Positions 1 through 20,971 of a DNA stretch of 32,951 bases are shown one piece after another. Within the stretch, counting starts at the first letter, position 1; each line of letters opens with the position of its first letter. The notes under the pieces are model-generated. The model worked only from the letters and a program-made list of their open reading frames with translations, searched no databases and was not told where the DNA came from. Both the position numbers and the translations under genes were made by a program. The stretch lies in sequence record DRR723986_6333; one strand, given 5' to 3'.

Positions 1-28
1 GGAAGTTCGAGTCTTCTCGACCGCACCA
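1..28 (+). tRNA. 3' fragment of a tRNA, probably tRNA-Leu (truncated by window edge)
   Basis: T-arm GGAAG-TTCGAGT-CTTCT, then acceptor 3' strand CGACCGC, discriminator A and CCA at 26-28. The anticodon is outside the window; Leu is inferred from resemblance to alphaproteobacterial tRNA-Leu 3' ends. Confidence 0.85.
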
Positions 29-104
29 TTCTCCCAAGAATTGAACAGCCTTGCGCTATGCAAATGCGATGATCGCCGATCAGATCATCTGCGTCGCCAC
101 CGGA

Positions 105-719
105 TCAGACAACACCTGCATCCTTGCCGATCATGGCCGCATGGGTCCGGTTCTTGGCGTCGAGCTTGCGGCACAGGGTCTTGACGTGCAGCTTGATCGT
201 GACTTCCTGCAAATCGAGTTCGCGGGCGATCTCTTTGTTTGACAGGCCCCGGCACAGGCCGTCGAGAACCTGCGATTCACGTGCGGACAGTAGTGCCGAC
301 AGTGCCGTTTCGGGTGTCGTCTCTTCTGCATTCAGGAAACCCAGTGGCACATAGACCTCGCCCACGGCCATAAAGCGAATGGCATTCACCACCGACTTCG
401 CCGCCATGGTCTTGGGCAGAAACCCGATGGCGCCATTGTCGATTGCGGTTTGCGCGATTGCCTTGTTCGCGGTGCCCGACATCAGGGCCACGGGGCGCCC
501 GTTGGACAGCTTGATGGCCTTCGCCAACCCGTCCAGCCCGTTCATTCCCGGCATCGAATAGTCGAGCAGCACCAGATCATACGGGGCGGAGTTGCCAATT
601 TTGGTGCAGGCCGCGTCCAGCGTGTCTGCGGTGTCAACCTCGAATGCCCCCTGAGAGGTCAGGAACGCGCTGAGGGTTTCGATCATCAGATCGTGGTCGT
701 CGGCAAGAAGGATCCGCAT
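105..719 (-). CDS. NarL/LuxR-family DNA-binding response regulator (RR1)
   Basis: REC domain (MRILLADDHD, LLDYSMPG phospho-Asp, FLPK) plus LuxR HTH (LSARESQVL..GLSNKEIARELDLQEVTIKLHV). Start placed at ATG 719, 10 bp after the kinase stop. Confidence 0.93.
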   Translation of the reverse strand: MRILLADDHDLMIETLSAFLTSQGAFEVDTADTLDAACTKIGNSAPYDLVLLDYSMPGMNGLDGLAKAIKLSNGRPVALMSGTANKAIAQTAIDNGAIGFLPKTMAAKSVVNAIRFMAVGEVYVPLGFLNAEETTPETALSALLSARESQVLDGLCRGLSNKEIARELDLQEVTIKLHVKTLCRKLDAKNRTHAAMIGKDAGVV

Positions 720-729
720 GGTATCAACT

Positions 730-3480
730 CTATCTCTTTGTGACTGCCACGGCCAGCGTGCGGGACAGTTCTTCCAGGTCAATCGGCTTGGCTAGTATAG
801 CGGCAGTTTGTGCCTGAATAAGACGAGGATCTGACAATCTCTGGGCCAGAGCGGTGACGACGATGATCGGCATGTCGGGCGAAAGGGCGCGAACCTTCTG
901 TGTCAGCTCGCCGCCATTCATGATCGGCATGTCGTAATCCGTGACCACCGCGTGCCAGTCGTCGGGGTCTTCCCTGATCGCGTCTAGCGCGTCCCTGGGA
1001 TCCTTACAGACGGCGACTTCCAGCCCTTTCGCCTCCAGATAGGAGGATATGACCGCGGCGACATTGGGATCGTCATCGACCACGATGACCGACAGGCCCT
1101 GCAACCGACTCAAATCTACCGAGCCTTTCGCGGTCGGCAGCAGATCGAGCCCGGCCAGTGGCCAATAGATGCGGAAGCTCGTCCCCCGGCCCGGTTCCGT
1201 GTCAAGCCCGATTGCGCCGCCGATGGCCTGGACCTGAAGCGCGGCAGTCGCGAGGCCAAGCCCAGTTCCCAACCTGCCCTTGGTCGTGAAGAACGGTTGA
1301 AAGACCTTCTTGGTCATCTCGGGCGACATGCCCGCTCCGGTATCGGTCAATCGCAGGCAGAGATAACGGTTTGTCGGGTCCAATTGCCCGAACGAAATGC
1401 TTTCCGCCTCCGAGGCCGCGCAGGCCCGGGTGTCGAGGATGATGCGGCCGTCCTTGTCACCAATCGCGTCCCGGGCGTTCAGGATCATGTTCACCAGCAC
1501 CTGGTTCAGCACACCTGAATTTCCCTTCAGGATATGGGCCACACCGTCGGTCTGGATGTCGAACGCAATCCTTTGAGGAATGTTGGTGCCCAGAAGTTCC
1601 GGTAATGTATCAAGGTTCGATGCCAGGTCGAAAACGCTGGTCTTGTCCGATCCGCCGCCAACATCCAGCAGCCGCGAAATCAGCTTGGCGGACTGCACGC
1701 AGGCCGCATTGATCCGATCGACATGCGGCTGCAACGACGGCACAAGATCGTCAGACAGCGAAATCAGGGTCGCAGAGCCGTTGATCGCCGCGAGCAGGTT
1801 GTTGAAGTCATGGGCAATGCCGGCAGTAAGCTGCGCGATGGCCTGCTGGCGCTGCAATCTGGAAAGCTCCTGCACCATTTCGGCTTCGCGCCGTTCGACT
1901 GCGAGGTTTTCAGAGATGTCCCGAATGACCAGCACCGACCCTCCGCCCTCCAGGGGCGAGCCGGTGATTTCGTGCGTTTCCGCCACGCCCGGGGCCTTGC
2001 GCGCCAGGCTCACCTCGAATGCAGCGTCAAGCCCTTCCGCCGATCGGGTGTAATAGGCGCGCCACCATCGCTTGCCCAGCCCGCCGCTGGCCCCTTTGTA
2101 GCCAAGCAGGGCGACCGCCGCCGTGTTGAGATAGACGATCCGGCCCTCGTCATCGGTCACGACGATCCCGTTCTGCACGGCCTCGATGGCGGCCAGTCTT
2201 TGGGACAGCAGGTGCTGTGCGGATTTCATCGCCGTGACATTGGTTGCCGACAGAACGATTCCGCCATCATCCAGCCTGCTGGCGCGTAACAGAACGCTGC
2301 GCCCGTCCGGAAGGTCCACCTCCTGCGCGGTGGCCAGATCGCACAGGGCGGCAAGGTCGGGTTCGAACATCTGTGACGGTTTTTCACCCGGATAGTCCCT
2401 GCAGCCCTCAAGATAGGACGCCCAGTTGTCCGCGAAGCTGCTTCCAACCGCCCAGTTGTAATCGGTGGCGGGAAACAGATGGTTCACGGCGGCATTTGCC
2501 ACCGCAACGCGAAGGTCGCGCTCGAGGACAAGAAACGCATCTTCGGTGGCCGAAAACGCCCGTTCCATCCGGGCGCGGGCGTGGTCCCGCTGTTCGGCGG
2601 CCTCGACGCGGGCGGTTACATCGGTTTGCGTTGCAACAATGCTTTGCACTTCGCCCGTTGCCGATTTGACTGGATAGAGCGTCATTTCGTTCCAGAACAG
2701 CGCGCCGGACTTGCGTTGGTTGCGCAGCAAGAAGGTGCCGCCCGCACGATCCGTCACGGCCTGGCGCAATCGCCTGCGTTCGGGGGAATCTGGTGCTTCG
2801 GCGGTCAGAAATCGACAATTGCGGCCCAGAACCTCGTCTGCCCTGAACCCGGACAGCCGTTCGAAGGCTTGGTTGACATAGACAAGCGGCTGATCCGCGT
2901 GCGTCGCATCCGAGATCGCAAAGCCTGAGGACGATCCCGATATTGTTGCTGCCAGCAGATCCTTTTCGACGTTGATATCCCGGTTGATCAAGGCTTGGGC
3001 GGCAAGCCCGGCAAGCCGCCGCGCCAGGTCGTAGTCGGATTTGCGGAAGCTCTCGGACGGTTTCCGAACCGAAATCAACGCCGTGTCCTGATCAATGAGG
3101 GCAACGAGGCAGCCGCCATAGGCGCTGGCGTCGAACGACCCGGACCAGTCGCCAAGTACCGGCAGGGAATAGATGTTTCGCGAGCGGGCAAAGAGATCGA
3201 CCGGAGGGCGCAGTTGCGCACCGATAAAGGATGCATCGTCCCCGGCCCTGACCTCGACATATCCATGCGCCTTGCGCACCACGATCAGGGACAGGACCGC
3301 GCCGATTTTGTCCCGCAAGGACAGGAAGATCGAATTAAGCGCGCTAACCGGATCCTGCGCGCTGGAATACGCCTCCAGGCAGTCCAGAAGCGCTTGCGTT
3401 TCATCCAGGATCTGCGCCTCTCGGTCACGAAGAAGCTGCAATTCATGCAAGGCTTCGCGCAGACGCTCGTCTTCTGACAT
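730..3480 (-). CDS. Hybrid sensor histidine kinase: GAF-like region, LOV, two further PAS domains, HisKA, HATPase, REC
   Basis: LOV motif EVLGRNCRFL (GRNCRFL at 2806-2826) with DQPLVYVNQAF and ATQTDVT; H-box AGIAHDFNNLL; N-box NMILNARDA; G-boxes DTGAGM, PFFTTK, GTGLGL; C-terminal REC (VVDDD, VTDYDMP, AKP). Confidence 0.93.
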   Translation of the reverse strand: MSEDERLREALHELQLLRDREAQILDETQALLDCLEAYSSAQDPVSALNSIFLSLRDKIGAVLSLIVVRKAHGYVEVRAGDDASFIGAQLRPPVDLFARSRNIYSLPVLGDWSGSFDASAYGGCLVALIDQDTALISVRKPSESFRKSDYDLARRLAGLAAQALINRDINVEKDLLAATISGSSSGFAISDATHADQPLVYVNQAFERLSGFRADEVLGRNCRFLTAEAPDSPERRRLRQAVTDRAGGTFLLRNQRKSGALFWNEMTLYPVKSATGEVQSIVATQTDVTARVEAAEQRDHARARMERAFSATEDAFLVLERDLRVAVANAAVNHLFPATDYNWAVGSSFADNWASYLEGCRDYPGEKPSQMFEPDLAALCDLATAQEVDLPDGRSVLLRASRLDDGGIVLSATNVTAMKSAQHLLSQRLAAIEAVQNGIVVTDDEGRIVYLNTAAVALLGYKGASGGLGKRWWRAYYTRSAEGLDAAFEVSLARKAPGVAETHEITGSPLEGGGSVLVIRDISENLAVERREAEMVQELSRLQRQQAIAQLTAGIAHDFNNLLAAINGSATLISLSDDLVPSLQPHVDRINAACVQSAKLISRLLDVGGGSDKTSVFDLASNLDTLPELLGTNIPQRIAFDIQTDGVAHILKGNSGVLNQVLVNMILNARDAIGDKDGRIILDTRACAASEAESISFGQLDPTNRYLCLRLTDTGAGMSPEMTKKVFQPFFTTKGRLGTGLGLATAALQVQAIGGAIGLDTEPGRGTSFRIYWPLAGLDLLPTAKGSVDLSRLQGLSVIVVDDDPNVAAVISSYLEAKGLEVAVCKDPRDALDAIREDPDDWHAVVTDYDMPIMNGGELTQKVRALSPDMPIIVVTALAQRLSDPRLIQAQTAAILAKPIDLEELSRTLAVAVTKR

Positions 3481-3498
3481 TTGGTGCCTTTGATTGGT

Positions 3499-4674
3499 CT
3501 AGCCAAACACTATGCACGAGATCATGAGATTACCATGGCGATTTCCGGCGCGAATCAAGGCGCCCTGTTCGCCGAAGGTGAATGTCCCCAGGAAGGGCGC
3601 ACCATCCAGGGCGTCGTTGACCCCGGCCACGACCTCGTCCAGCCGATCCTGCACCGACAACATGCAGCCCCCGCAATAGACCATTAGCGCCCCGGATATT
3701 GGCGACGCGGCCAATTGGCCCGAGGACCGCGCCAAGCTGGCAACGCGGCCTGCGCGGGCGATCAGGCCGTCTTTCGTGCCGGTCATCAGTGTCAGTTTTT
3801 CGCCGGTGGCGACGGTCGCAAACAGGTCGATCGACCCGTCCGCCCGCGCAACGGCGGGGTGGGCCAGCAGGTAGAACGGCACGCTGCCCAGTTGGCCAAC
3901 TTCGCGCCCGAGCGGCCAAAGCGTGCTTTCGGCAAGGATGGCTGTTTCCGGTTCGGAGATGTCGGGTTGGGGAATCGCGCCATTGGTCCAGGCGCGATAC
4001 ATATCGAGGGCAGGGCGTCCATCGATTTCAAAGACCCGGCGGCCCGAGGATTGCGTAACCGTGCCGCTATGGCCGGTCGGGGAATAGCCGTTCTGGTAAG
4101 CGAAGGACACTGGCGCCGAGGGGAACAGCACCGACACGACCACCCCGTCGCCGCTGCGGTGCTGCCGGTCGAAAACGAACCATTCGGCGGATATGCTGTT
4201 ATCCGCCGCGCTGCCGCCGATGATGGGCACATCGGTTCCGATGGCGTCCTCGATCCCGGCCAGAACGTCTTCCTCTGCGCCGGGAGTTGCTGACAGCCAG
4301 ACCAGTTCCGGTCGCTCGCCCATCCGGTCGGCCGCTGCCAGTGCCCGGAGGGTGGCTGTGCGGGCCGCTGCCCGAGGGTCGGCAGACATGGGCTCCAGTG
4401 CGGTGCCATAGGCCCCGTCCGGGTCGCTGATGGCAAAGACGCCAACGCCTTCGGTATGGCCCGCATGAGTCATCGCGCCTCGGCAGGAGGTTGCACCATG
4501 AAGCTGAGCGGGGCCCGCGACAGAATGGGCCGCGCGTTCCATGGCGGTGCAATTGCCGTGGATCACAACGAAATCCGTTGCCCTGCCCTTCAAAAGGGAC
4601 AGCGCGGTTGACAGGTCTGGGGACTGCTCCACGAAGACTTTCAAGGCTCGCTCCCTATCTTTAGAAGAGCGCAT
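3499..4674 (-). CDS. FIST-domain signal transduction protein (NosP-like)
   Basis: FIST-type motifs GATSC, PIIGGSAAD, VFEIDGRPA, YCGGC and GTFTFGEQG..HGN; 391 aa; directly upstream of a histidine kinase. Confidence 0.85.
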   Translation of the reverse strand: MRSSKDRERALKVFVEQSPDLSTALSLLKGRATDFVVIHGNCTAMERAAHSVAGPAQLHGATSCRGAMTHAGHTEGVGVFAISDPDGAYGTALEPMSADPRAAARTATLRALAAADRMGERPELVWLSATPGAEEDVLAGIEDAIGTDVPIIGGSAADNSISAEWFVFDRQHRSGDGVVVSVLFPSAPVSFAYQNGYSPTGHSGTVTQSSGRRVFEIDGRPALDMYRAWTNGAIPQPDISEPETAILAESTLWPLGREVGQLGSVPFYLLAHPAVARADGSIDLFATVATGEKLTLMTGTKDGLIARAGRVASLARSSGQLAASPISGALMVYCGGCMLSVQDRLDEVVAGVNDALDGAPFLGTFTFGEQGALIRAGNRHGNLMISCIVFG

Positions 4675-4717
4675 AGCTGCTTTCCGCGCTGTTCACATCA
4701 TCTCAGGAGAGTAGATT

Positions 4718-4733
4718 ATATCCGAAAGTATAG
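4718..4733. promoter_or_regulatory. Candidate operator, copy A (ATATCCGAAAGTATAG)
   Basis: AT-rich imperfect palindrome upstream of the FIST-kinase-RR1 genes; near-copies at 13984, 21809 and 30809. Confidence 0.5.
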
Positions 4734-5141
4734 TCAGCCTTGATAGGCTGCCGAGACCATCGCCCTTGCCAGCCCGTCATAGGTTTCGCGCCAGGCGGCT
4801 TCGTCCTGCGCACTGAAGCTCTGCCCCAGAATCTGTTTCAGGGCGTCGATCAATGCGGCACCGACGGCGTCATATTGTTCGGGGGTGACGCCATAGCCCA
4901 CATGGCGTTTGGCAAGCTGCACTGCGGCGGGCAGCAGATTGTCGGGCTCTTCGAGATTGTCGACGATGAAAGACAGGGTTTGCGCCAGCTTGCGCCCCTG
5001 CAATTTCATGTCGCCCGCAAACAGGGTCTTCGATCTTGGGTCGATCCGGAACAGGCAGGAATAGAACAGACGCGACATCCGATCCGCATCGGTCGCAGCA
5101 AGGGCCCAACTGGCCTGAACGCGGTCAATGGTTTCGGTCAC
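4734..5141 (-). CDS. Single-domain globin (flavohemoglobin-type globin domain, no reductase)
   Basis: 135 aa; VQASW, LFY(B10)..LF..DP..KTLF(CD1), Q(E7)GRKL, LAKRH(F8)VGYGV, YDAVGAAL. Confidence 0.9.
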   Translation of the reverse strand: MTETIDRVQASWALAATDADRMSRLFYSCLFRIDPRSKTLFAGDMKLQGRKLAQTLSFIVDNLEEPDNLLPAAVQLAKRHVGYGVTPEQYDAVGAALIDALKQILGQSFSAQDEAAWRETYDGLARAMVSAAYQG

Positions 5142-5263
5142 GTGAGATCAAACCTGTTGTTGGCACACCCGCACTCCTATCAGGCGGGCAGGCACGAGGG
5201 AAGCCCGGCATCGGCGAACCTGTCGTGGCATACGGAAATTCTGCGTCCCCAATTGCTGGAGCT

Positions 5264-5638
5264 TCACCCCAGAACGATCAGCCCCCAGCATAGGCCCCAC
5301 AGCCCGCCAGTCACCATGACTGCTGCGCTTGCGATGTCCTTTGCTTTCTTTGCCAGCGGGTGGCGGTCGGTCGAGACATAGTCAACCGTTGCCTCAACAG
5401 CGCTGTTCAGCAATTCAACGACCATCGTCAGCCCGCCAAGCGCGACCAGAAGGGCGGTTTCTGCGGTTGAGAACTCTCCCAGCATCAGCATCAGCCACCC
5501 AAGGGCATTCAGTCCGGCCCATTGCCTGAGGCTCTTTTCCTCGCGCCAGCACAGGCGCCATCCTTGCATCGACCAACTCGCTGTTTTTTGAAGACGCCAG
5601 ATTTCTCTGGCCAGGTGAGAGGTAACTGAACGTATCAT
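5264..5638 (-). CDS. dgkA: Diacylglycerol kinase (prokaryotic membrane DAGK)
   Basis: 124 aa, hydrophobic, signature VELLNSAVEATVD..HPLAKKAKDIASAAV; ATGA overlap with the upstream gene. Confidence 0.92.
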   Translation of the reverse strand: MIRSVTSHLAREIWRLQKTASWSMQGWRLCWREEKSLRQWAGLNALGWLMLMLGEFSTAETALLVALGGLTMVVELLNSAVEATVDYVSTDRHPLAKKAKDIASAAVMVTGGLWGLCWGLIVLG

Positions 5639-8600
5639 TGCGACGGGTCCTGCTGACAGGGGGTGGAAAGGTCCATCAACTGATCCAGATCCTCGGTCCC
5701 CAGATCGTCGGAATAGATGCCGGTTGCCCCTTGTCGCAGCAGGCAGGCTGCGGTGGCCCGGTCGTTGATGGTGTGAACATAGACCGGCATTCCGGTTGCG
5801 CGTGTCACCGCGCCAAGCAGGCCATCTTCGGCTACGGCAAGCGGCATGGTCAGAGCATCCGGCCTGTAGGCGAGGGCGGCTTCGATAACCCTGTCGGGGT
5901 CGCTGCCGAAGCGGTAAAGCGTCCAGATAACCTGCTTGAACCCAAGCTCGCGATAGAGGGCAATCTCTTCCGGCTGATAGGCTTGGGGGACGAACTGCGC
6001 AAGGATATCGGGATGCCTGGTTGCGATGATCTCATGCGCGGCGGCGGGGTCGCTTTTGACATCGGTCACAATCAGGATGTTCGGGTTTGCCCGCATCCAT
6101 CCCGCCAGCCCGTCAAGATCGCAGTTCCTGGGCTGATCGGGACTGGCGGCAAGCAGTTGTCGAAACTGGCCAAGATCGAGGGGCGAATCCGTTGCTGCCC
6201 CGAACCGGCTGGTGAAGCTGTCCTGCCAGTCATGAAGGCAGACCAGTTCCCCGTCGGCGGTCCAACTAAAATCGATCTCGAACACGTCGAACCGGGCGAG
6301 ATTGGCGGCCATGGCCTCAAAGGAATTGGATATCGCGATGCCGCCAAGGCGTCCGCCCCCATGCGCAACAGAACGGCCAAAGAGGGCGGGCTGCGTGGCT
6401 CTTAGCCGGAGGGACTGGACCATCAGGCCAAGCGTGCGGGAGTCGTCACTGATTTCGCGCGCGGCAGGGCATGCCAGCGTCGCCCCTTGCAGTGACAGAA
6501 CCAAAGGGATCGCGCGGCCCCGTGGTAGCGTGCTGACGTCAATTACCAGAGGGGCGTTGATTCCCGTTTGCTGCCTGCCGATCGTGGTGCCCTGATAGGA
6601 CACGGCGACATCGACTGTGTCTGACTCGAAGGCGGCTGTTGCCACGGCCAGTGACAGTGAAGCCGGCTGGTCCGGCAGCACAACTTCGAAGGTCGCGACC
6701 TCTGCGCCCATCCAGCGCCCGAACTCCTCTTGCGGCCACCACCCGCCAGCGAAGGACACCCCCCTTGTGGCCATCGCCTCGGCCAGCGGCACGATCCTGT
6801 CGACCGGCAGGGCGGTCTCTGCGGGCAGGGGGGGCTGCGCGGCTGAGGGGGGCTGGCATCCCTCCTCAACGGCGACCGCTTCTGCCGGGACCGCAGGCAC
6901 GGGCGTTGCAAGCGCCTGAAAAGGCGCAGGTTCGTCGGCGATGACGTCGCCAAGCATCGCGCCGATCAGCATGGCCGCCATCTGACGGGGATCGGTGCCG
7001 CTGCCTTGTGCCGAAGGGCAGGTCAGCGCGTCGCCACCGGCAATCAGGTCGAACGTGACGGGCTGCCCCCTCGGCACACCAGTCAACCGGGCCGAGATCG
7101 CGTCGCGCCCGGACAGGGTTGTCTGGGTCAGGATACGCCCATCAAAGGCAAGCTGGATGTTTCGGCTGCCCGGCACCGCAAGCTCTAGGGTCAGTTGCAG
7201 GTCGTTCGCAGTCTCGGGCAGAACCAGAGTCAGACGGGCGTCACGCGATCCCATCCAAAAACCGCCGGGTTCCTGTCCCCACCAGCCCGTGGGAAACCCG
7301 ATAGGCCCGGCCAACGCGCCGCCGGATATGCGCTGTCCGATTTGCAGGGGAGCGACCGGGGCAGGTGACGCGGGGGGCGTGGGGACGATGCATTGCCGCG
7401 TTTCGGCGGCGGGTGCCGCGATGGCGACGACACGATGCTCAACCACGTCATCCTCGTGCTCAACTTGCCTGGATGGCTCGGCTCGGGCCAGGGCCGCCGG
7501 GGCGGCCGCGATTGTCGCCTGGCCGGGCGCTGCGGCTGGTTCTTCGGCGACGACGGGTTCGGCCAGCGGGTCGAGGAAGACGCGGAGACGTGGAAAGTGC
7601 CGGTTCGCGAACTCTGCAATGCGGTGATCCGGCCCGATCACTGCAAGATAGGGTTCGCGCATCTCTGAAGCGCGTAATTCGGGCAATGAAAGCCCCTGTA
7701 GGACCGGAGTGATCGGTGCGATCTCGGGTCCGCAGAACGCCGTGTCGTGAACGGCGAGAATATGGGCGATGAACCTGTCGCGTGATGCGTCGATCTGATC
7801 CGCCCATAGGGAATGAGAGGCCGGATCGAACCCGGTTGCACATTGGTCCAGACGGTCGAGAATTTCGGCGCGCCCGTCAGGGCCTATTCCGATCAGGCTC
7901 AGGCCGCGCTGCAGAACCCAGTCTTCACCGGCCTCAAGGCTTTCGGTGGTCTGACGTCTGACGAAGCTGGCCCCGGCACCGAAGGCAGAGGACTGCAACA
8001 GGATCCCGCGTTCTCCGGTGGCCAGCGATGAGATGGTGATCGGCAGGGGCAGATCCCCGCGTGCTTGCCCGATCCGGATCAGCCCGTCTGCTTCCTGTTC
8101 CGCCGAAACCGCAGTTGCATTCGTCAGCATTTCGACCAGTTGCTGCCGGGAGAAAAAGCGCGATTGAGTGAGCGGGTGCAAGGCCGCGCCGGTTGTGCGG
8201 TCTCCGGTCAGAAGGCAGAGCCCGTCCTGATCGGCCATGCCCGCCTCTGGGGCCATCAGGCCAAGTGCGTGGCAGTCATCAAACCAGAAATAGCGCGTAC
8301 CGGCAGGCAGGTTCAGCGCAGTCTGCGACAGGGTCTCTTGCGCGCGCAGATCCCCGAGGGTCGCCTGCGAGATCGCTTCGCCCTCGTCAAAGGCAAACAG
8401 GGCGGGCAGCCGAAACCTGCTGTGGCCGAACTGGACCTGCCCGGCCTCGGTATTGGCGTATAGCCCGTCCGACAGATCCGGATAGGCCCAAAGCCGCGCA
8501 TAAACGGATTGAAAGCCCATGACGTGATTGTTCAGGGCGCGCTGATCGTCGGCGGCGACGTCGAGCGTTTCGGGCAGGGTTGGCGAAGCGCCAAGCAGAT

Positions 8601-9966
8601 CGGCGCCAAGCCCCATGCGCGGTACGTCGAAGCCAAGATAGCTGAGCAGGGTCGGGCCGATATCGAGTGTCGTGCCGCGCCGGTCAATCGTCCGGCCGGG
8701 TTGGTCCGTCTGCCGGTCCAGGATCATGAACAGGTTGCGCCGGGGACCGGCTGTCAGCAGGTCGGTGACGCTGTTCACCATCGCCAGATGATCGGACATG
8801 ACCGCAATGACGGTGTTGTCGCCATTGGGCCCCGACAGGATGTCCTCGATGAATTGCCCCGCGAGATGGTCCGCGCATTGCACCGAGTTAAGCATCGGGT
8901 TGTCACCGTCGCCAAAGCGCATCCCTGCGCAGGCCCGGTTGGTATCCGCATGACCATTGGGATGGTGGGTGTCGAGCGTCAGCAGGGTCAGAACGAAGGG
9001 CGATCCGGCCTCTGACAGCGTGTCAAACCGTTCCCGCGCCAGGTCGAACAGGGTATCGTCCTGCAAGCCCCATTCAGCGATGTAATCGGGGTCGTCCAAT
9101 GTGGGCAGCAGCTGGTCCAGCCCGGTGACCTGGTCATAGGCATGACTTTCATAAAACGCCCCTTTCCCTGCGAATTCCACCGAGGCCCCGCCAAGATAGG
9201 ACAACGTGTAGTCGGCCTCGCTCAGAATATCGCCCAGACAGGTCGCCCCTGACAGAAACCGGCTGACGCGCATCGAATTGGCCCCGCCTGACAGGATCAG
9301 CGGCACCCCGCATTGCGACGCCACCATGCCCCCGACGGTGAACCCCGCGCCGGTGGTTTGCCCGATATCGGTGAAGGACATCGCCTGTCCCTCCAGCGCG
9401 GACAGACGGGGCGTCAGACCGGCAAAGCGGCTGTCATCCAGATAGGTGCGTTCAAGGCTTTCAAGATAGAGGATCACAAGGTTGCGGGGCTGTTCGGGAC
9501 CGTCTGGATCCAGTTCGGGATCGACAAAGCCCTGGCTTTGCTGATCCACCATGGCAAAGCGCAGCGCGTAGGAGGCGGTTGCCGTTGAAACCGGGTGCAG
9601 GGCCAGCGCGCCGATGACCAGCGACAGGATGGCGATATCCCAGGCGCGATTGCGGGTCAGCGCGCCGGGCCGCAGCCAGCGCCGCCCCCACCACAATCCA
9701 GCACCGACACCTGCGACCGCCAACACTGCGGCGATCATCGAGCCTGCATATTGGCTGATGTCACCGCCCTCAAGGCCGGTGCGCATGTGGTAGAACACCG
9801 CCCCGTTGACGCCTTCGCCGGTGATCTGGGTCAGTCCGATCTGTATGCCGGTCAGAACAACCAAGCTCAGACATCCGATCTGGACGGCCCATGTCAGCCA
9901 CCGTGCATGGCCAAAACGGCGAAGCAGCGCAATTGCGGCAAGCAGGACAAAACTGGAAACGAGCAT
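5635..9966 (-). CDS. OpgB/MdoB-like phosphoglycerol transferase (LTA-synthase/sulfatase fold) fused to extra domains and a C-terminal glycerophosphodiester phosphodiesterase (GDPD) domain
   Basis: N-terminal TM helices; OpgB-like motifs YLESLERTY, FTVGGMVASQCGVPL, WGLQDD, TLDTHHPNG, SDHLAM. C-terminal AHGGG..SNS.EA..FEIDFSWTADGELVCLHDW..VTDVK..YVHTIND..GIYSD. Confidence 0.85.
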   Translation of the reverse strand: MLVSSFVLLAAIALLRRFGHARWLTWAVQIGCLSLVVLTGIQIGLTQITGEGVNGAVFYHMRTGLEGGDISQYAGSMIAAVLAVAGVGAGLWWGRRWLRPGALTRNRAWDIAILSLVIGALALHPVSTATASYALRFAMVDQQSQGFVDPELDPDGPEQPRNLVILYLESLERTYLDDSRFAGLTPRLSALEGQAMSFTDIGQTTGAGFTVGGMVASQCGVPLILSGGANSMRVSRFLSGATCLGDILSEADYTLSYLGGASVEFAGKGAFYESHAYDQVTGLDQLLPTLDDPDYIAEWGLQDDTLFDLARERFDTLSEAGSPFVLTLLTLDTHHPNGHADTNRACAGMRFGDGDNPMLNSVQCADHLAGQFIEDILSGPNGDNTVIAVMSDHLAMVNSVTDLLTAGPRRNLFMILDRQTDQPGRTIDRRGTTLDIGPTLLSYLGFDVPRMGLGADLLGASPTLPETLDVAADDQRALNNHVMGFQSVYARLWAYPDLSDGLYANTEAGQVQFGHSRFRLPALFAFDEGEAISQATLGDLRAQETLSQTALNLPAGTRYFWFDDCHALGLMAPEAGMADQDGLCLLTGDRTTGAALHPLTQSRFFSRQQLVEMLTNATAVSAEQEADGLIRIGQARGDLPLPITISSLATGERGILLQSSAFGAGASFVRRQTTESLEAGEDWVLQRGLSLIGIGPDGRAEILDRLDQCATGFDPASHSLWADQIDASRDRFIAHILAVHDTAFCGPEIAPITPVLQGLSLPELRASEMREPYLAVIGPDHRIAEFANRHFPRLRVFLDPLAEPVVAEEPAAAPGQATIAAAPAALARAEPSRQVEHEDDVVEHRVVAIAAPAAETRQCIVPTPPASPAPVAPLQIGQRISGGALAGPIGFPTGWWGQEPGGFWMGSRDARLTLVLPETANDLQLTLELAVPGSRNIQLAFDGRILTQTTLSGRDAISARLTGVPRGQPVTFDLIAGGDALTCPSAQGSGTDPRQMAAMLIGAMLGDVIADEPAPFQALATPVPAVPAEAVAVEEGCQPPSAAQPPLPAETALPVDRIVPLAEAMATRGVSFAGGWWPQEEFGRWMGAEVATFEVVLPDQPASLSLAVATAAFESDTVDVAVSYQGTTIGRQQTGINAPLVIDVSTLPRGRAIPLVLSLQGATLACPAAREISDDSRTLGLMVQSLRLRATQPALFGRSVAHGGGRLGGIAISNSFEAMAANLARFDVFEIDFSWTADGELVCLHDWQDSFTSRFGAATDSPLDLGQFRQLLAASPDQPRNCDLDGLAGWMRANPNILIVTDVKSDPAAAHEIIATRHPDILAQFVPQAYQPEEIALYRELGFKQVIWTLYRFGSDPDRVIEAALAYRPDALTMPLAVAEDGLLGAVTRATGMPVYVHTINDRATAACLLRQGATGIYSDDLGTEDLDQLMDLSTPCQQDPSQ

Positions 9967-10220
9967 TGGTGGCTCCGACGATGCAAAAGACCCGATGCCG
10001 GATCTGTTTCCGGCGCAATTGGGGTGTGCTGAATTGTGGCGGCTGCCGCGAGACAGCCCGAACGGCCCTGAAGCCGGACGTTATGGACGCGCGCCAGGCG
10101 AGTGGACTGCCGATCCACTCCCATTGGCATGCGCGGGGTCATTGTTGGCGGGCATCGGATCGGCGTGACCGGAAAGCGGCAGCCGACGCGAACCCGTTTG
10201 ACACCTTTGGCGGTGTTGTC

Positions 10221-11630
10221 TCAGGCCCTTGCGTAGATATCCTCGTATCGCACGATATCGTCCTCTCCAAGGTAACAGCCGGTCTGTACTTCGATCAGAC
10301 GAAGCGGCAGCTTTCCGGGGTTTTCGAGTCGATGAATTTCACCAAGCGGAATGTAGACGGACTCGTTTTCACTCAGCAGCTTCACCGTGCTGCCGACCGT
10401 GACCGAGGCCGACCCTTCGACGACCACCCAATGTTCGGACCGGTGGAAATGGCTTTGCAGCGACAGTCGTCCGCCGGGCTTTACGACGATGGATTTGACC
10501 TGGAACCGAGGGGCGAGGGACAGCGTTTCATAGTGGCCCCAGGGCCGTTCCTCGCGGCGATTGCCCTCTGCCTGCGGCCAGCCGCGCGCCTTTGCGACCG
10601 AGACGGCCAGTTTGACCCCGTCCGCGGTGGCCATGTCCGCCACCAGAACTGCGTCGCGGGTCGCGATTGCAGCAATATTCCTCAGCCCCACGCCGATAAC
10701 CGCGATTTCGGGGTCGGTTGAAGACAACAGGCTGTCGCGGCAATCAATCGCCTGTGCCTTTCCCTGACAGACAACACCCTTGTCGTCCTGATCAGAGATC
10801 TCCCACAAGGCCCGCCAACTGCCGAGATCGGACCAACCGGCGTTCAACTGCACGACGCACCCGGTCTCGAATTCCATCACCGCGTGATCAATGGACAGGG
10901 ACGGTGCCTTGGCGAAGTCCTTTCCAAGGCGCAGAAAGTCCATATCGGGGACCAGGTCCGCAACAGCGGCTTTTGCCGCAGCCAGCACGTCGGGCGCATG
11001 TTTTGCCATTGCGTCATACATGCGCTGCGCAGTGAACAGGAACAGGCCCGCATTCCAAAGATGCTCGCCCCCTGCAACCAGTTGCTCGGCCTGATCCAGG
11101 CATGGTTTTTCGATGAACTGACGGAATCGGCGGGCCGACCCTGGCGTTGTGCAGGGGTCCGCATGAATATAGCCGTAGCCGGTTTCGGCATGATCCGGGA
11201 CGACCCCGAACACGACGATTTCACCTTGGCGGGCGGCGACCACAGCCTCGCCCAGGGCGGCTGCGAATTGCATCTGGTCCTCGATGTGATGATCGGCCGG
11301 GGCGATCAGCAACAGCCGATCCGGGTTTTCGGCCATTGCGTGGACGACAGCCACCGCCACCGAGGCCGCGGTATTTCTGCTTTCGGGTTCCAGCATGATC
11401 GCGCAGCCCTTGGCCGCAATGTCCTGCAACTGTTCCGCAACTGTGAACCGGTAGGTTGACTGCGTGACGATCAGAGGGGCGGCGCAGCCTGCATCCTCCA
11501 GCCGCTGAACGGTCGTTTGCAACGGAGAGAGAGCGCCATTGAGACGGCAGAACTGCTTGGGGCGAGAGGTGCGCGACAAGGGCCAGAGCCGAGTGCCGGT
11601 GCCGCCGGCCAGGATGACGGGAATAATCAT
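10221..11630 (-). CDS. manC: Mannose-1-phosphate guanylyltransferase / mannose-6-phosphate isomerase (type II)
   Basis: PVILAGGTGTRLWPLSR..PKQF, EPESRNTA, ETGYGYI, FIEKP, WNAGLF, GWSDLGSW; cupin RPWG..LSLQSHFHRSEHWVVVEG. Start is ATG 11630 or GTG 11642. Confidence 0.95.
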   Translation of the reverse strand: MIIPVILAGGTGTRLWPLSRTSRPKQFCRLNGALSPLQTTVQRLEDAGCAAPLIVTQSTYRFTVAEQLQDIAAKGCAIMLEPESRNTAASVAVAVVHAMAENPDRLLLIAPADHHIEDQMQFAAALGEAVVAARQGEIVVFGVVPDHAETGYGYIHADPCTTPGSARRFRQFIEKPCLDQAEQLVAGGEHLWNAGLFLFTAQRMYDAMAKHAPDVLAAAKAAVADLVPDMDFLRLGKDFAKAPSLSIDHAVMEFETGCVVQLNAGWSDLGSWRALWEISDQDDKGVVCQGKAQAIDCRDSLLSSTDPEIAVIGVGLRNIAAIATRDAVLVADMATADGVKLAVSVAKARGWPQAEGNRREERPWGHYETLSLAPRFQVKSIVVKPGGRLSLQSHFHRSEHWVVVEGSASVTVGSTVKLLSENESVYIPLGEIHRLENPGKLPLRLIEVQTGCYLGEDDIVRYEDIYARA

Positions 11631-11682
11631 GTCAGAGGTCACGTCGAAATCACTTTCAGGTTGAGGAAGGGGTGAAGGGTTG

Positions 11683-12987
11683 TCAGGACGCGCGCCGCAT
11701 TGCGCGCGCCACAAGGGCAATCGAGACAAGTAGAAGCGCGCCCTGCACGGTGGCTTTTGTGGCCATCATCGCGCCGATCCCGCCTTGACTGCCGCCAATC
11801 CAGAGCGCGGCAATCGACAGGGGAAGCGCGCAGATCGCCACGAAGATGCCACTTCGGTCGCCGAGGGCTGCAAGAAAGGTCGCGGCGAGATATGTGCCGG
11901 TGAAAGAGATACCGGCCAGCACGGCGTACAGCAGATACGGGGCCGCAGGGACGTAGGCGGGCCCGGCCACCAGTTCGACCACGACAGAAGGGGCCAGAAG
12001 CGCAATCGCCGTCAGGATCACACCAGAGCCGGCGATCAGTGCGATCACCGGAAGGGCAGGCCGCAAGGTGGGACGCCCTTCACGCGCGGCTGCGGTGACC
12101 ATCGGCAGCAGGATCCCCGACAGGCCGAAGAACGCATAGAACTGGATACGCTGGATCAGGGTGAGCCCGGCGACCAGCCCAGCCTCATGCTCGGGCAACA
12201 GGGCTGCGGCCAAAAGAACGTCTCCGTCGAGATGGCCGACCATGGCCAGTTGCAGGATTGCGAACGGCCAGGCCAGAGCGACGATGCCGCGCATCAGGCC
12301 GGCCATGTCTGCAGGCTCTTTGAGGTCGGAGCCGCGTGATGACGCGGCCCCGCGCACCGGCAGCCAGCCAGCATAGACCGACAAGGCAATGGCAGCCACG
12401 ATGCCGGCCACACCAAGGTCAAGGGACCATGCCATAAGCGCGCCGCCCAATCGGACGATCATTTCCAGATTGGTGGACAGCACGATGTCTCGCATCGACA
12501 TTTGGCCGAGCGCGGCGCCCCGGGCAATGCACAGCGGGGCAGCAACGGGCAGGATCAGCAGCAGGATGGGAAGCAGGATGTCCGACCCCAGGCCGAGGGT
12601 CTCGGACACGCCGCCAGAGATCGCAATCAGGCCCAGTGGCACGACCAGAACCCCGGAATACAGCGCGCTGAGCTTGTTCAGGCGGGACAGCGCCGCGCGG
12701 GTCCGGTTCTTGTCTGCCCCGTCGGCGACCATCTGGGAAACAGCCAGTTGCGCGGCGCTGATCACGGATAGCATGGCCAGCTTGAGCGTCAGGATGACCA
12801 TGAGATCGTGGAAAGCCGCCGGGCTTAGCAAACGGCTGAAAATCATGTTGAACGCAAGATTGCCCGCATTGGCGAGGTTTGTTGCAATGAAGGTGACCAG
12901 CGCCGGGCTTGCCAGCGCCAGAAAGGCGGTCTGCACGCCAAGGCGGACCCGGCCCGCCGGGGCTTCGTATACGGAGGCTAAGGACAT
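11683..12987 (-). CDS. Polysaccharide/oligosaccharide flippase (Wzx/MOP superfamily)
   Basis: 434 aa with roughly 12 hydrophobic segments; NAGNLAFNMIFSRLL, RGAALG, LDGDVLLA; located in a glycosyltransferase cluster. Confidence 0.75.
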   Translation of the reverse strand: MSLASVYEAPAGRVRLGVQTAFLALASPALVTFIATNLANAGNLAFNMIFSRLLSPAAFHDLMVILTLKLAMLSVISAAQLAVSQMVADGADKNRTRAALSRLNKLSALYSGVLVVPLGLIAISGGVSETLGLGSDILLPILLLILPVAAPLCIARGAALGQMSMRDIVLSTNLEMIVRLGGALMAWSLDLGVAGIVAAIALSVYAGWLPVRGAASSRGSDLKEPADMAGLMRGIVALAWPFAILQLAMVGHLDGDVLLAAALLPEHEAGLVAGLTLIQRIQFYAFFGLSGILLPMVTAAAREGRPTLRPALPVIALIAGSGVILTAIALLAPSVVVELVAGPAYVPAAPYLLYAVLAGISFTGTYLAATFLAALGDRSGIFVAICALPLSIAALWIGGSQGGIGAMMATKATVQGALLLVSIALVARAMRRAS

Positions 12988-12990
12988 CTG

Positions 12991-13776
12991 TCAGATTGCC
13001 TTGCGGATCGCGCCTTGAGCGCCCTGGGCGTCAAGATGGGCGCGTGCGTCCAGGCGAAGCTCTGCTATCAGGCGCAACATGCGGATGCCGCTTGAAAAGA
13101 TGGCACTTGCCGACACTTTCGACCCGGGCACTTCGCTCCATTCCGCAAGGGGCTGTTCGTAGAAGCGCAGGTTGGCCTTCTTTGCCTTTTCGCAGCTGGC
13201 AATGCGCGCAAAAAGTTCGACATCGAACAGCCAGCCTGCGGTGAACGGCGTAGAGATTGCCTGCGTCAGGGCCGGGGTGGCGCGGAACATCTTTGCTCCG
13301 CATTGGGTGTCCGCAATTGGCAGGCCGATGGCCAGCCGGGCCAGACCCGCGCAGATCCGTGAAACGATGCGGCGCGGTATGGTCCGCTCGACCCGGTGTC
13401 CCAGCATCTTGCGCCTGGATCCGAAGATCACCTCGATATCCGGCTGGCGCAGCGCAATGCGCATGAAATCCTCCACAAGATAGAGGGGGGTTGCCAGATC
13501 GGCGTCCCAATAGGCGACCAGATCGGCCCCGTCCTCGAGCGCACGGCCAAGCCCCGCTCGCACGGCCTCGGCCTTGCCGCCGTTCCGGGTCAGGTCCAGC
13601 ACCTCGATGCGGCCGGGCCGCGCCTCGGCCAGGGCTGTCAGTTTTGCAAGCGACCCGTCGGTGCTGCCATCATTCACAAGCAGCAGGCGCGTGCTGACAG
13701 ACGTATCGATGAAGGTCAGGAAATGCTTGCTTTGGAGGCGCTGTGCCTCGTTGTAGCAGGGAACGACAACGGTCAG
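12991..13776 (-). CDS. GT2 glycosyltransferase, polyprenyl/dolichyl-phosphate sugar synthase-like; start codon unresolved
   Basis: VNDGSTD, NGGKAEAVR.G, YWDADL (DxD), FGSR, DTQCGAKMF, WLFDVE. The frame extends upstream of the track start (13677) through LTVVVPCYNEAQRL, but has no ATG/GTG/TTG before the in-frame TAA near 13877. Confidence 0.8.
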   Translation of the reverse strand: MTVVVPCYNEAQRLQSKHFLTFIDTSVSTRLLLVNDGSTDGSLAKLTALAEARPGRIEVLDLTRNGGKAEAVRAGLGRALEDGADLVAYWDADLATPLYLVEDFMRIALRQPDIEVIFGSRRKMLGHRVERTIPRRIVSRICAGLARLAIGLPIADTQCGAKMFRATPALTQAISTPFTAGWLFDVELFARIASCEKAKKANLRFYEQPLAEWSEVPGSKVSASAIFSSGIRMLRLIAELRLDARAHLDAQGAQGAIRKAI

Positions 13777-13789
13777 TTTATGAGTGTTT

Positions 13790-13808
13790 ACCCCGTAGGT
13801 TACGGGGT
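13790..13808. repeat. Perfect 8-bp inverted repeat ACCCCGTA-GGT-TACGGGGT
   Basis: Read directly; it sits just upstream of the GT2 N-terminal motif and overlaps a GGGGT SD-like sequence on the minus strand. Confidence 0.7.
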
Positions 13809-13983
13809 GTACGGGATGGGCGCCAATCCGTTCTGCCGGCGAAAATGCGTTACTCGTTTTAAATCTGAGAAGGTGTTATGGCGCAGTTTCTCAGAGGTAT
13901 TTGAGCAGAGGCACATTTTGGCGCTGCAAAGGATGAGAAGTCAGACCCCGGGGGAGAGCAGGCAGCGCACAAGAGATGCGCTG

Positions 13984-13999
13984 CTATACTTTTGGTTAT
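13984..13999. promoter_or_regulatory. Candidate operator, copy B (CTATACTTTTGGTTAT; reverse complement ATAACCAAAAGTATAG)
   Basis: 14/16 identical to copy A; upstream of GT2-flippase-manC; overlaps the GT4 stop codon. Confidence 0.5.
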
Positions 14000-15194
14000 T
14001 GAAAGTCGGGCAGGGCAGAGCGCACGCCGAAAATCTTGACCATGTGCCAGTGCGCGATATCGCTCATCGGGATCGCTTCGACGGCGATTCGGTTGGCCTT
14101 TGCAATGCGATTGCATTCAGCGCTATCCGAAAGAAGCGATTTCATCCGGTCGGCAAGGTCACGGGCATCGCCGGGTGCGAAATGGCTGCCGGTCAGGCCT
14201 TCGTCTTCGCACAGGTCGATGAAATCACCGATCCTGGGAAAGATCGGAACAGCCCCAAGGCTGGCGGCCTGATGCAGCACCCCGGACGAGCCGGTCGTCG
14301 CCTCGTAGTCGAACACCGCAAGGCGACCGCTTTCGAAAAAGCCCGGAACATCTTCCTCGGCGACATATCCCGCGAATTGCACGGCGGGATCATCCTTGCG
14401 CTTTAGGGCCAGGTTCGCGACGTAACCGGGCGTGTTCGGGTGATCTGTGCCGCCGATGACCAATTCCACCGGGGGCGTTTCCGGGTCTTCACGCAGAATG
14501 TCGAAGGCGGCAAGAAGGGTTTCCAGCCGCTTGTACGTTCCGAATTTCCCCATCGTGACGATCCGCATGGGACGCGCCTCGATCGGCACCCAGGGCCTTG
14601 CGCCAACATTGAACGTGCCGTGCGGGACCAGCGTCACATCCGCGTTTGGCACACGATCCGACAGCAGGTGGAATAGCTGCGCAGGGTCACGGTCATGTAG
14701 TTGGCCCAACTCATCACGCGGGTGATGATGGCACCACCGGCTGACACGACGGCCTGTCGAAGCCGCTGTCCTTTCAACTGGGTGGAGTCCAGATCAATAC
14801 CGGCAATCACGTTATGGGCGACAATGCCGCTTTTCCACCCCATCAGGCGGCTCAGGGCAGGGCTCATCAACCCAAGCGCGGCGGGGATTTCCCGGTCTCC
14901 GAAACTGGCGGATTGCAGGTTGTAGATCACCGCATCGGGGCGTTCCGCCCGCATTGCCCTGAGCAGGGAAATACATGTCGTCGTGCGGTTGAAATCCCAC
15001 ACCCGCCGTACGCGGATTTTGGGGCCGAGATCCTGCTCGGCCATTGGATGGGGCAGGCGGTCGGCCAAAACGATCACCTCGGACACGTCCGGATGGCTCG
15101 CTAGGGCATTGGCAAAATGCAGGCCGTATTCATTGAGGCTGCGCTGTCCCGGCGGGAAGGCAGAGACGAGGGCGATCCGATATCCTTTGGTCAT
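13996..15194 (-). pseudogene. GT4 (GT-B fold) glycosyltransferase split by a 1-base frameshift near 14670-14675
   Basis: 5' ORF 14634-15194 (IALVSAFPP..SLNEYG..TVTLRSY) and 3' ORF 13996-14709 (HLLSDRVP..VPHG..MGKFGTYKRLE..FAGYV..SSGVLHQA) join into one GT4 if one base is added at TAT-TCCAC. Could be a sequencing error. Confidence 0.78.
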
Positions 15195-15204
15195 CGAATT
15201 TCCT

Positions 15205-17807: not shown

Positions 17808-17808
17808 G

Positions 17809-20800: not shown

Positions 20801-20971
20801 CATGTGGATGAACGCATCATAAGTGTTGCCATGGGTGAAGGGCAGCAGCCCGCCGTGAAACAACACGGTTGCCGCCAATGCGACGACAAGCAAACCCAAC
20901 CCGGCACGCAGATCCTGCGTGACAGGCTGAACGGTGCCAGTCTGATCATTGGCGGAAAGGGTCATCTTCAT
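17809..20971 (-). pseudogene. Large polytopic membrane protein (GT-C-like / PTPS-related membrane domain, C-terminal FxLYD-like domains), frameshifted at a C8 tract (G8 at 20713-20720 on + strand)
   Basis: 5' part (TYDAFIHMFF..WDDRWYTGF.TTSYPP) is in ORF 20090-20971 and the remainder is in ORF 17809-20703. Removing one C gives TSYPPGTHMAIGAL and about 1053 aa. Many TM segments; C-terminal LLPGETAGFRIDF and NIYPGQSVPVSF repeats. Confidence 0.75.

Follow-up and report, generated by a model that had tools for sequence, protein, structure and literature searches.

A conserved module of FIST protein, LOV hybrid kinase and NarL-type regulator with an optional globin in marine bacteria

Introduction

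Stand-alone proteins built of a FIST_N and a FIST_C domain, whose genes adjoin those of a histidine kinase and a response regulator, are known from the NosP systems of Pseudomonas aeruginosa, Legionella pneumophila and Burkholderia pseudomallei. According to excerpts of PMC12570481 and PMC8846402, NosP has been shown experimentally to bind and control the neighboring kinase NahK or NosK; these kinases are cytoplasmic and often hybrid, and the accessory protein binds and tunes them. The same arrangement occurs in the locus studied here, four genes at 105..5141 of sequence record DRR723986_6333 (the window, 32,951 nt, the whole stretch of DNA that was analyzed), which encode a globin, a FIST protein, a hybrid histidine kinase with a LOV domain and a NarL/FixJ-type response regulator. 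On balance, we favor a reading in which light gates a two-component system encoded by the locus, the FIST protein serves it as a dedicated accessory sensor, a sensor-type globin is optional, and adhesin and polysaccharide genes are the probable targets.

The window module shares NarL/ErdR-type regulators with the NosP-like modules of Dinoroseobacter sp. S375. It differs from the NosP systems in that its FIST protein falls in a different subfamily (25 bits on the NosP model, 22% identity), its kinase, unlike NahK, carries GAF-like, LOV and two PAS domains (70 bits on the NahK/ErcS C-terminal model, cut-off 400), and a globin is present in two thirds of loci. The LOV kinases, represented by Brucella LOV-HK (6ph4), Erythrobacter EL346 (4r3a), BluLightHisKinLov and PRK13557, have in common with the window kinase the LOV core, the GXNCRFL cysteine, the J-alpha helix and a PAS relay, and the window LOV domain matches LOV-kinase structures at Z 16-18. 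Unlike them, the window kinase has an invariant N-terminal helix and a GAF-like domain before LOV, and a HisKA/CckA-like core with a fused receiver (95 bits against a cut-off of 450, and 266 against 631); it also has a conserved dedicated FIST partner, and none is described for LOV kinases in the literature found. Its core, PAS domains and fused receiver recall the CcsA/CckA-ChpT-CtrA kinases, from which it is set apart by a tightly linked NarL-type regulator and by its scores on the CckA models (188 and 153 bits against 1000). The HGbRL/HGbI globins of Methylacidiphilum infernorum (3wfw, 3s1i) share Tyr B10, Gln E7, Lys E10 and His F8 with the window globin, but HGbRL is fused to a Roadblock/LC7 domain, whereas the window globin stands alone in a two-component operon and its hexacoordination is putative. 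HnoX-HnoK, a small gas-sensor hemoprotein encoded beside its kinase, is a functional analogy for the window globin and FIST, although the folds differ and the cluster contains no H-NOX gene.

A full-text search on FIST, LOV and histidine kinases gave no description of the cluster in the titles and abstracts of the matches listed, and no full text joining a FIST domain, a globin and a histidine kinase was found. Literature naming Dinoroseobacter shibae locus tags likewise did not describe the cluster, transcriptome supplements being outside that search. Dshi_1893, which is probably the orthologue of the window kinase, appears in an excerpt of Endres et al. (PMC4335406), where it is catalogued as a LOV protein that also has PAS, kinase and receiver domains. 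What is new, as we read it, is the conserved combination of NosP-type accessory sensing with a LOV kinase, the two kinds being already known separately.

Results

Conservation of the FIST-kinase-regulator unit

The conserved module is best explained as a multi-input two-component system of marine bacteria with three genes at its core. The original prediction, a note made from the letters of the window, had named synteny among relatives as a check on the system. Contigs of one genome per species were scanned with an alignment of 24 FIST relatives, which gave 251 pattern matches and 212 confirmed FIST relatives; the best 80 of the 212 were kept as loci and their gene order was read by tblastn of the window proteins. 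Counts refer to loci with enough flanking DNA (75 for LOV, 64 for kinase core and regulator, 78 for globin). In 70/75 loci a same-strand LOV region follows FIST at no more than 1.5 kb, the kinase core and the fused receiver follow in 63/64 each and the regulator in 61/64, and LOV, core and regulator occur all together in 59/64, so that the order FIST, LOV kinase, regulator is borne out. The globin is directly upstream in 42/78 loci, and in a further 10 it lies upstream on the same strand at a distance of 2-3 kb; its proposed membership in the cluster thus holds as linkage (52/78) and fails as a rule, with no globin in the locus in 26/78. Two of the loci with a distant globin were examined (L057, L075), and both carry a WecG+Bac_transf sugar transferase gene on the opposite strand between globin and FIST; the other loci of this type have homologues of that gene upstream of FIST.

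FIST relatives 60-73% identical to the window protein were found in Roseibacterium, D. shibae, Jannaschia, Hoeflea and many marine metagenome-assembled genomes. In D. shibae DFL 12, the proteins identical to those of locus L095 are annotated as conserved hypothetical (ABV93634, FIST), as "LOV-regulator, Blue-light sensing" (ABV93635) and as the regulator (ABV93636). Distribution is patchy: the module is present in 6/15 genomes of one genus, one of them with a split FIST gene.

An order-level sample of 301 genomes, with FIST called at E<=1e-60, held 10 FIST-positive genomes, and the GAF-LOV kinase adjoins FIST in 6 of these; the N-terminus of that kinase was found in 8/301 genomes, 6 of them with FIST adjacent. 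The remaining four FIST-positive genomes (L097-L100) encode FIST, a longer GAF-PAS kinase without a LOV-grade match, and a regulator; the L097 kinase (1343 aa) has GAF, three PAS, HisKA, HATPase and REC domains and a LOV-like PAS that is ~31-34% identical. In one genome, G091 (locus L096), the orthologous kinase and regulator occur, but FIST was found neither in the 5.8 kb upstream nor in the genome at E<=1e-60; the kinase can therefore exist independently of FIST. Because FIST linkage persists across kinase types while the globin comes and goes, the durable unit, judged from gene order, is FIST-kinase-regulator; LOV characterizes the largest branch, and the globin is an accessory. The sister architecture of FIST, longer kinase and regulator was seen in L097-L100, L074, L079 and L080, and the LOV-like PAS lacks the cysteine in L079 and L080.

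In the FIST tree, globin-less copies from Ahrensiaceae and Tepidamorphaceae nest within the Rhodobacterales copies, and this nesting suggests horizontal transfer of the three-gene core between orders. The window globin as a query found no match in two whole genomes of this globin-less type, and three Rhodobacterales without an adjacent globin had only globins of 36-40% identity elsewhere in the genome. The globin-less core adjoins a divergent ABC exporter in L009, L013, L017 and L019 (Ahrensiaceae, Tepidamorphaceae). A whole cluster of Rhodobacterales type, with the globin 2 kb upstream, was found in a record titled Oceanobacillus sp. HTM 045 and labeled Bacillota (L068), probably a mislabeled or contaminated assembly.

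Layout and expression of the locus

All four minus-strand open reading frames (ORFs) and their gaps of 59, 18 and 10 bp, in the order globin, FIST, hybrid kinase, regulator, were found as originally described (Table 1). Pfam returned Globin; FIST_N and FIST_C; PAS/LOV-PAS-PAS-HisKA-HATPase-REC; and REC with GerE for the four proteins. Downstream of the regulator 104 bp remain before the window ends.

The only sigma-70-like consensus matches of the region sit at the globin-FIST gap (4754..4727, minus strand), where a weak hairpin (4750..4735) overlaps the globin stop. Over positions 1-10500 the consensus scan returned 2 promoter-like matches against 2.2 expected and 4 terminator-like matches against 7.5; since these counts are not above the shuffled expectation, the sites serve only as a lead for an internal promoter.

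Twelve runs recorded as RNA contain the orthologous locus L095 or part of it. In two of them from separate studies (X8 and X9), contigs cover parts of all four L095 genes; one (3264-4577 of L095) spans FIST into the kinase and further contigs span the kinase into the regulator. The globin-FIST junction is not spanned in these contigs, which extend beyond the FIST start by just 11 letters in X8 and by even less in X9. These data are a weak hint of co-expression, because the contigs do not establish a single transcript and DNA may be present. Cover is absent before ~2708 and after ~8011 of L095; these limits were set aside as transcript ends, the kinase cover being fragmentary. The X1 and X2 contigs (65 kb and 6.4 kb, uniform depth) resemble whole-genome cover and were rejected as evidence of transcription.

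Table 1. Coordinates of the module, its domains and the co-oriented upstream genes; gene spans of the module are written in reading direction.
Feature	Position	Strand	Residues	Remarks
Globin	5141..4734	-	135 aa	single-domain; GTG start; Pfam Globin 59 bits
Globin-FIST gap	4675..4733	-		59 bp
FIST protein	4674..3499	-	391 aa	
FIST_N	4015-4551	-		Pfam 98 bits
FIST_C	3562-4011	-		Pfam 81 bits
Hybrid kinase	3480..730	-	916 aa	
Long N-terminal helix	3361..3480	-	1-40	near-invariant DERLREALLEL; AlphaFold2 helix 2-39
GAF-like domain	3046..3360	-	~41-145	AlphaFold2 and structure search
Linker helix	2935-3045	-	146-182	
LOV domain	2611..2934	-	183-290	GRNCRFL; YtvA_fam 113 bits over 175-307
LOV cysteine codon	2815-2817	-	Cys222	
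J-alpha helix	2545-2610	-	291-312	
Two further PAS domains	1906..2541	-	314-422, 430-525	PAS_7 65.6 bits; PAS_8/PAS_9, PAS_8 54.3 bits
Kinase core	1153..1836	-	549-607, 657-776	Pfam HisKA and HATPase_c
H-box histidine codon	1810-1812	-	His557	
Fused receiver	757..1089	-	798-908	Response_reg 72.8 bits
Fused receiver aspartate codon	937-939	-	Asp848	
NarL/FixJ-type regulator	719..105	-	204 aa	from ATG; mechanical ORF begins at TTG, 782; Response_reg 75.6 bits, GerE 65 bits
Regulator REC	375-713	-		
Regulator aspartate codon	561-563	-	Asp53	
Regulator GerE helix-turn-helix	132-293	-		
Diacylglycerol kinase	5264-5638	-		Pfam; 122-bp gap to globin
Sulfatase-family/GDPD membrane protein	5635-9966	-	1443 aa	Pfam
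ManC, mannose-1-phosphate guanylyltransferase/isomerase	10221-11729	-		Pfam; among glycosyltransferases

The FIST protein represents a distinct subfamily

By Pfam and synteny, the FIST protein is a stand-alone FIST_N+FIST_C protein encoded next to a histidine kinase. It had been assigned to the NosP type, an assignment that does not survive comparison with the NosP equivalog NF041558, on which it scores 25.3 bits (cut-off 450) over residues 132-230 only; the G001 and G002 orthologues reach 29.7 and 29.4 bits. The genome of Dinoroseobacter sp. S375 (G002, cluster L028) encodes two other FIST proteins that score 379 and 344 bits on the same model, each between an ErdR-like regulator and a NahK-like kinase (L081, L083), and one of the two shares 22% identity with the cluster FIST. 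From the 25-bit score and the separate NosP-like modules of a related genome, the cluster FIST is, by sequence, a distinct subfamily arranged in parallel to the NosP modules, and for the same reasons heme and nitric oxide (NO) sensing is not transferable to it by family membership. Roseobacters thus carry NosP-type systems besides the cluster under study, the S375 pair scoring below the 450 cut-off.

A full HMMER search over 1.84 billion representatives returned 3351 FIST-related representatives at E<=0.001 and 581 at E<=1e-30, and nearly all of the best 150 are stand-alone proteins of 380-430 aa. Conservation over 143 sequences of the subfamily is high at Cys334 (0.97), His380 (0.99), Cys337 (0.87), His272 (0.87) and Cys64 (0.83), besides several acidic and basic residues; the five Cys and His positions suggest a metal, heme or redox site. 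The original FIST description reportedly proposed small-molecule ligands. No solved structure was found by sequence (top match phosphoheptose isomerase, E 0.3). The AlphaFold2 model has a predicted local distance difference test (pLDDT) of 84; its nearest solved fold is FBXO22 (E 1e-7), and Toblerone-fold enzymes, cyclic amide hydrolases and chorismatase, come next. These fold matches, at TM scores of 0.3-0.46 and ~10% identity, fit a small-molecule or cofactor pocket in the model and prove nothing. Among the best 150 representatives the only fusion is P0268 (665 aa), in which a FIST match of 305 bits follows a seven-helix membrane part with a weak 7tm_3 match (33.3 bits, cut-off 33.5); no FIST fusion was found among proteins of 686-2000 aa, which is weak evidence. 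The split FIST gene of the genus sampled above (L093/L094, G010:C1:1090053-1091191) lies in two frames (residues 12-238 and 244-391) and is likely a frameshifted pseudogene.

These data bear on the alternative in which FIST is a NosP-like heme sensor of NO, the globin a second sensor or scavenger of O2/NO, and the kinase an integrator of blue light with NO/O2. NosP-type FIST proteins bind heme and control adjoining kinases, a heme globin is linked in 52/78 loci, and His272, Cys334 and His380 are conserved in the subfamily, the first two aligning with identical residues of a NosP-like protein; an excerpt of PMC8846402 further records NO signaling via H-NOX for D. shibae. Weighing the other way are the NosP score, the identity of 22% to the NosP-like paralogue and the two NosP-like modules that S375 keeps besides the cluster; because S375 retains these two true NosP-like modules, the cluster FIST has most likely diverged in ligand. 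We regard the NosP-like sensor as unlikely, though it is the most credible of the alternatives. The idea that one kinase integrates light in cis and a heme-gas signal in trans keeps its LOV input anatomy and its FIST linkage, and loses heme and NO sensing by NosP membership.

The globin resembles the HGbRL/HGbI subgroup

The globin has Tyr27(B10), Phe41(CD1), Gln48(E7), Lys51(E10), Leu E11 and His80(F8), and all six residues are identical in 53/53 cluster-linked globins. Its nearest solved structures are 3wfw (N-HGbRL, E 4e-26) and 3s1i (HGbI, 4.7e-20), ahead of the flavohemoglobins (3.6e-14), and in a gap-free alignment to 3wfw (residues 3-130) Lys51 falls on Lys52(E10). Closest relatives and the residues Tyr B10, Gln E7, Lys E10 and His F8 together place it in the HGbRL/HGbI subgroup as defined in the excerpted part of PMC4476040, where Lys52(E10) of N-HGbRL is described as ligating the heme iron in the closed form and the protein as a putative globin-coupled sensor. 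The earlier view of a flavohemoglobin-type globin gives way to this one, the NO-dioxygenase flavohemoglobins being more distant. The 135-aa protein has no reductase part and scores 69.2 bits on the flavohemoglobin model NF009805 (cut-off 432), matching profile positions 5-135 only. Longer forms of the globin were not found among proteins of 238-2000 aa at E<=1e-8, which is weak evidence. We read the globin, from its residues, as a putative Lys(E10)-His hexacoordinate gas or redox sensor of HGbRL type, a role as scavenger being less likely.

Architecture of the hybrid kinase and its regulator

The kinase runs, in order, through GAF-like, LOV, PAS, PAS, HisKA, HATPase and REC domains (Pfam: PAS_9/LOV 195-290, PAS_7 314-422, PAS_8 430-480, HisKA 549-607, HATPase_c 657-776, Response_reg 798-908), and its orthologues are uniform in length (914-951 aa). 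It had been called a LOV hybrid kinase, which it is, but the GAF-like domain and two further PAS domains had been overlooked. Pfam gave no match over the GAF-like part. In the AlphaFold2 model of residues 1-310, built on an alignment of 30 orthologues (pLDDT 87.5), a helix (2-39), an alpha/beta domain (44-138), a linker (147-180), the LOV core (186-287) and the J-alpha helix (289-309) follow one another. Residues 22-172 of the model match the GAF structures 3trc_A (VIA-align Z 14.1, root mean square deviation (rmsd) 3.4, 149 aligned) and 6xhg_A (Z 12.2). Best LOV matches are 8c05_A (Z 18.6, rmsd 1.9, 122 aligned), 2pr5_A (YtvA, 18.0) and 6ph2_A (17.9), with Brucella LOV-HK 6ph4 and DsLOV 4kuk also within Z 16-18.6.

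The predicted NCRFL cysteine is present as Cys222 in GRNCRFL and is kept in 70/74 kinase orthologues (lost in L010, L063, L079 and L080). In the same set the motif Asn is kept in 71, the motif Arg in 70, the second Arg in 71, the RNxRK Asn in 73, the FWN Asn in 70, the FWN Trp in 74 and the terminal Gln in 74, and every one of these pocket residues is present in the window kinase. Except for the Trp, we take them to be flavin contacts. The H box (His557) and the ATPase boxes are intact (N 664, G1 713, G2 738), as are the fused receiver residues (Asp802/803 acidic pair, Asp848, Lys898); the predicted protein lacks none of the motifs expected of an active hybrid histidine kinase, and its LOV flavin pocket is canonical.

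Nine positions of the N-terminal helix region are invariant in 30 orthologues (alignment A2: M1, E5, L7, R8, E9, L11, E13, L17, E21). The DERLREALLEL motif is present in the GAF-LOV kinases, FIST-less L096 included, and missing from the variant kinases L097-L100, L074, L076, L079 and L080. A role of the helix as dock for FIST found no support, the helix being kept without FIST in L096 and missing from these FIST-linked variants. A complex prediction of FIST with kinase residues 1-310, in which alignments were unused, gave a score of 0.17 and a mark of 0.34, which speaks neither for nor against binding.

The predicted regulator combines an intact receiver with a GerE DNA-binding domain. It falls below the equivalog cut-offs of ErdR (NF041830, 101 bits against 390) and NarL (NF007935, 99.4 against 250). 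With 56-80% identity across loci it is the best-conserved protein of the set, and it follows the kinase at ~10 bp in 61/64 loci.

For the kinase core the nearest NCBIfam models are PRK13557 (NF010076, 265.8 bits against 631), a VirA-like model (209) and Brucella CckA (188 against 1000); NF052306 (94.7 against 450, LOV part only) and NahK/ErcS NF041832 (69.9 against 400) are likewise below their cut-offs. The resemblance to CckA (188 and 153 bits on two models) raises the alternative of a CcsA-like branch kinase, whose fused receiver would signal through ChpT to CtrA, rather than the kinase acting mainly on the adjacent regulator, and so bring a light input to motility and the cell cycle. The fused receiver has all its catalytic residues, no Hpt protein is encoded in the cluster, and Dshi_1893 is named as a potential CcsA homologue in an excerpt of PMC7232146. 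Against this stand the CckA scores far under the cut-off of 1000, the close and well-conserved regulator, and that same excerpt, which reports no transcript change for Dshi_1893 and draws no conclusion. We consider the CcsA-like role improbable.

Genomic neighborhood and likely output

Full 8-kb flanks were available for 46 loci. In 31 of them a large RTX-repeat/DUF6923 gene and a gene for UDP-glucose/GDP-mannose dehydrogenase converge on the regulator, 25 are flanked by mannose-1-phosphate guanylyltransferase (ManC), 8 have the WecG+Bac_transf transferase and 5 an ABC exporter; at least one of these neighbors occurs in 41/46. The four genes of the locus had been described correctly, but this conserved polysaccharide and RTX neighborhood had been overlooked. 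In D. shibae the neighboring genes Dshi_1895-1904 are called an alginate cluster in an excerpt of PMC9426580. The RTX and sugar-nucleotide genes are, going by this recurrent proximity, the likely output of the module.

Discussion

In the mechanism we favor, blue light would form an adduct between Cys222 and the flavin, and the J-alpha helix and two PAS domains would relay the change to the dimerization helices of the kinase and alter autophosphorylation of His557. FIST would bind the kinase and tune it in response to a ligand of its own, in the way that NosP acts on NahK and NosK; excerpts of PMC12570481 and PMC8846402 make the proposed action in trans on the adjacent kinase a fair analogy, and the parallel NosP-like, NahK-like and ErdR-like set in cluster-bearing S375 is a precedent for an accessory role. 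Phosphate would pass to Asp53 of the adjacent regulator, with the fused receiver (Asp848) as a competing sink or relay, and the regulator would control the neighboring RTX-repeat and sugar-nucleotide genes, i.e. attachment or matrix production. The globin would be an optional add-on feeding into FIST or the kinase.

Several observations weigh against this reading. All four proteins are known from their genes alone, and Dshi_1893 is simply listed in the excerpt of PMC4335406. Control of the kinase by FIST is an analogy only, because this FIST fails the NosP model, and the L096 kinase does without FIST. The globin is missing from 26/78 loci, and its presence changes at least 6 times on well-supported branches of a quick maximum-likelihood FIST tree. 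No shared promoter or regulator site was seen upstream of the globin when 13 upstream regions were aligned with MAFFT. Hybrid kinases that carry a fused receiver normally depend on an Hpt protein, and the cluster does not encode one. The polysaccharide genes and the module may just happen to occupy the same island.

In its most ambitious form, the module would be a three-channel hub of a kind not described before, in which LOV in cis and, in trans, a new FIST subfamily with a conserved Cys/His site for a metal, heme or redox signal and a stand-alone Lys(E10)-His hexacoordinate globin act on one GAF-LOV-PAS-PAS kinase, so that roseobacters living with algae would make RTX adhesin and surface polysaccharide in step with day and night and with the O2/NO changes of the phycosphere. 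This form we hold to be speculative and quite unlikely; if true, the globin would be the first free globin to serve a histidine kinase as a protein-protein sensor. The least probable alternative takes the genes as co-located and perhaps co-transcribed, with FIST a small-molecule-binding or enzyme-like protein (for example of a polysaccharide pathway) and the globin in housekeeping O2/NO handling under the system's control, neither being a kinase sensor: the fold likeness to cyclic amide hydrolases and chorismatase, the FIST-less pair L096, the dispensable globin in a third of loci and the surrounding polysaccharide genes speak for it, and the low fold scores and identity, the position of FIST directly before the kinase in 70/75 loci and across two kinase architectures while flanking polysaccharide genes vary, and the regulatory role of all experimentally studied stand-alone FIST proteins beside kinases (excerpts of PMC8846402 and PMC12570481) speak against it.

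For roseobacters on and around algae, light, oxygen and NO vary together daily, and the coupling of these to attachment is the question that the light-gated, FIST-tuned system addresses. If it acts as proposed, the accessory-sensor principle of NosP and H-NOX would extend to a photoreceptor kinase, a second FIST subfamily would be characterized, and a natural kinase gated by light AND ligand would be available for optogenetics; its reach is given by the 212 confirmed relatives in contigs of one genome per species and the 581 FIST-subfamily representatives at E<=1e-30. Should FIST and the globin not signal, a well-conserved yet ordinary LOV two-component system remains. The hypothesis is directly testable, as the module is present in D. 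shibae, which is genetically tractable and non-pathogenic.

Other genes of the window

The genes upstream of the globin (5264..11729) are co-oriented but lie outside the conserved unit. The 1443-aa protein combines an N-terminal membrane part, an LtaS/OpgB-like sulfatase domain and a weak C-terminal GDPD match; the end of its gene overlaps the diacylglycerol kinase start by 4 bp (5635-5638). A weak relative of it occurs in only 1/80 loci, and a sulfatase-family gene likewise lies upstream of the L096 kinase. Between ManC and fragments of GT2/GT4 glycosyltransferases, the minus strand at 11683-20971 holds ORFs of 434, 511, 361, 964 and 293 aa, none of which has a Pfam match at E<=0.01; they may form a polysaccharide locus with uncharacterized proteins, or be misframed in GC-rich DNA. 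Farther on, two more REC+GerE regulators are encoded on the minus strand at 21024-21701 and 22925-23524, with an EamA transporter gene between them and no kinase recognized beside them.

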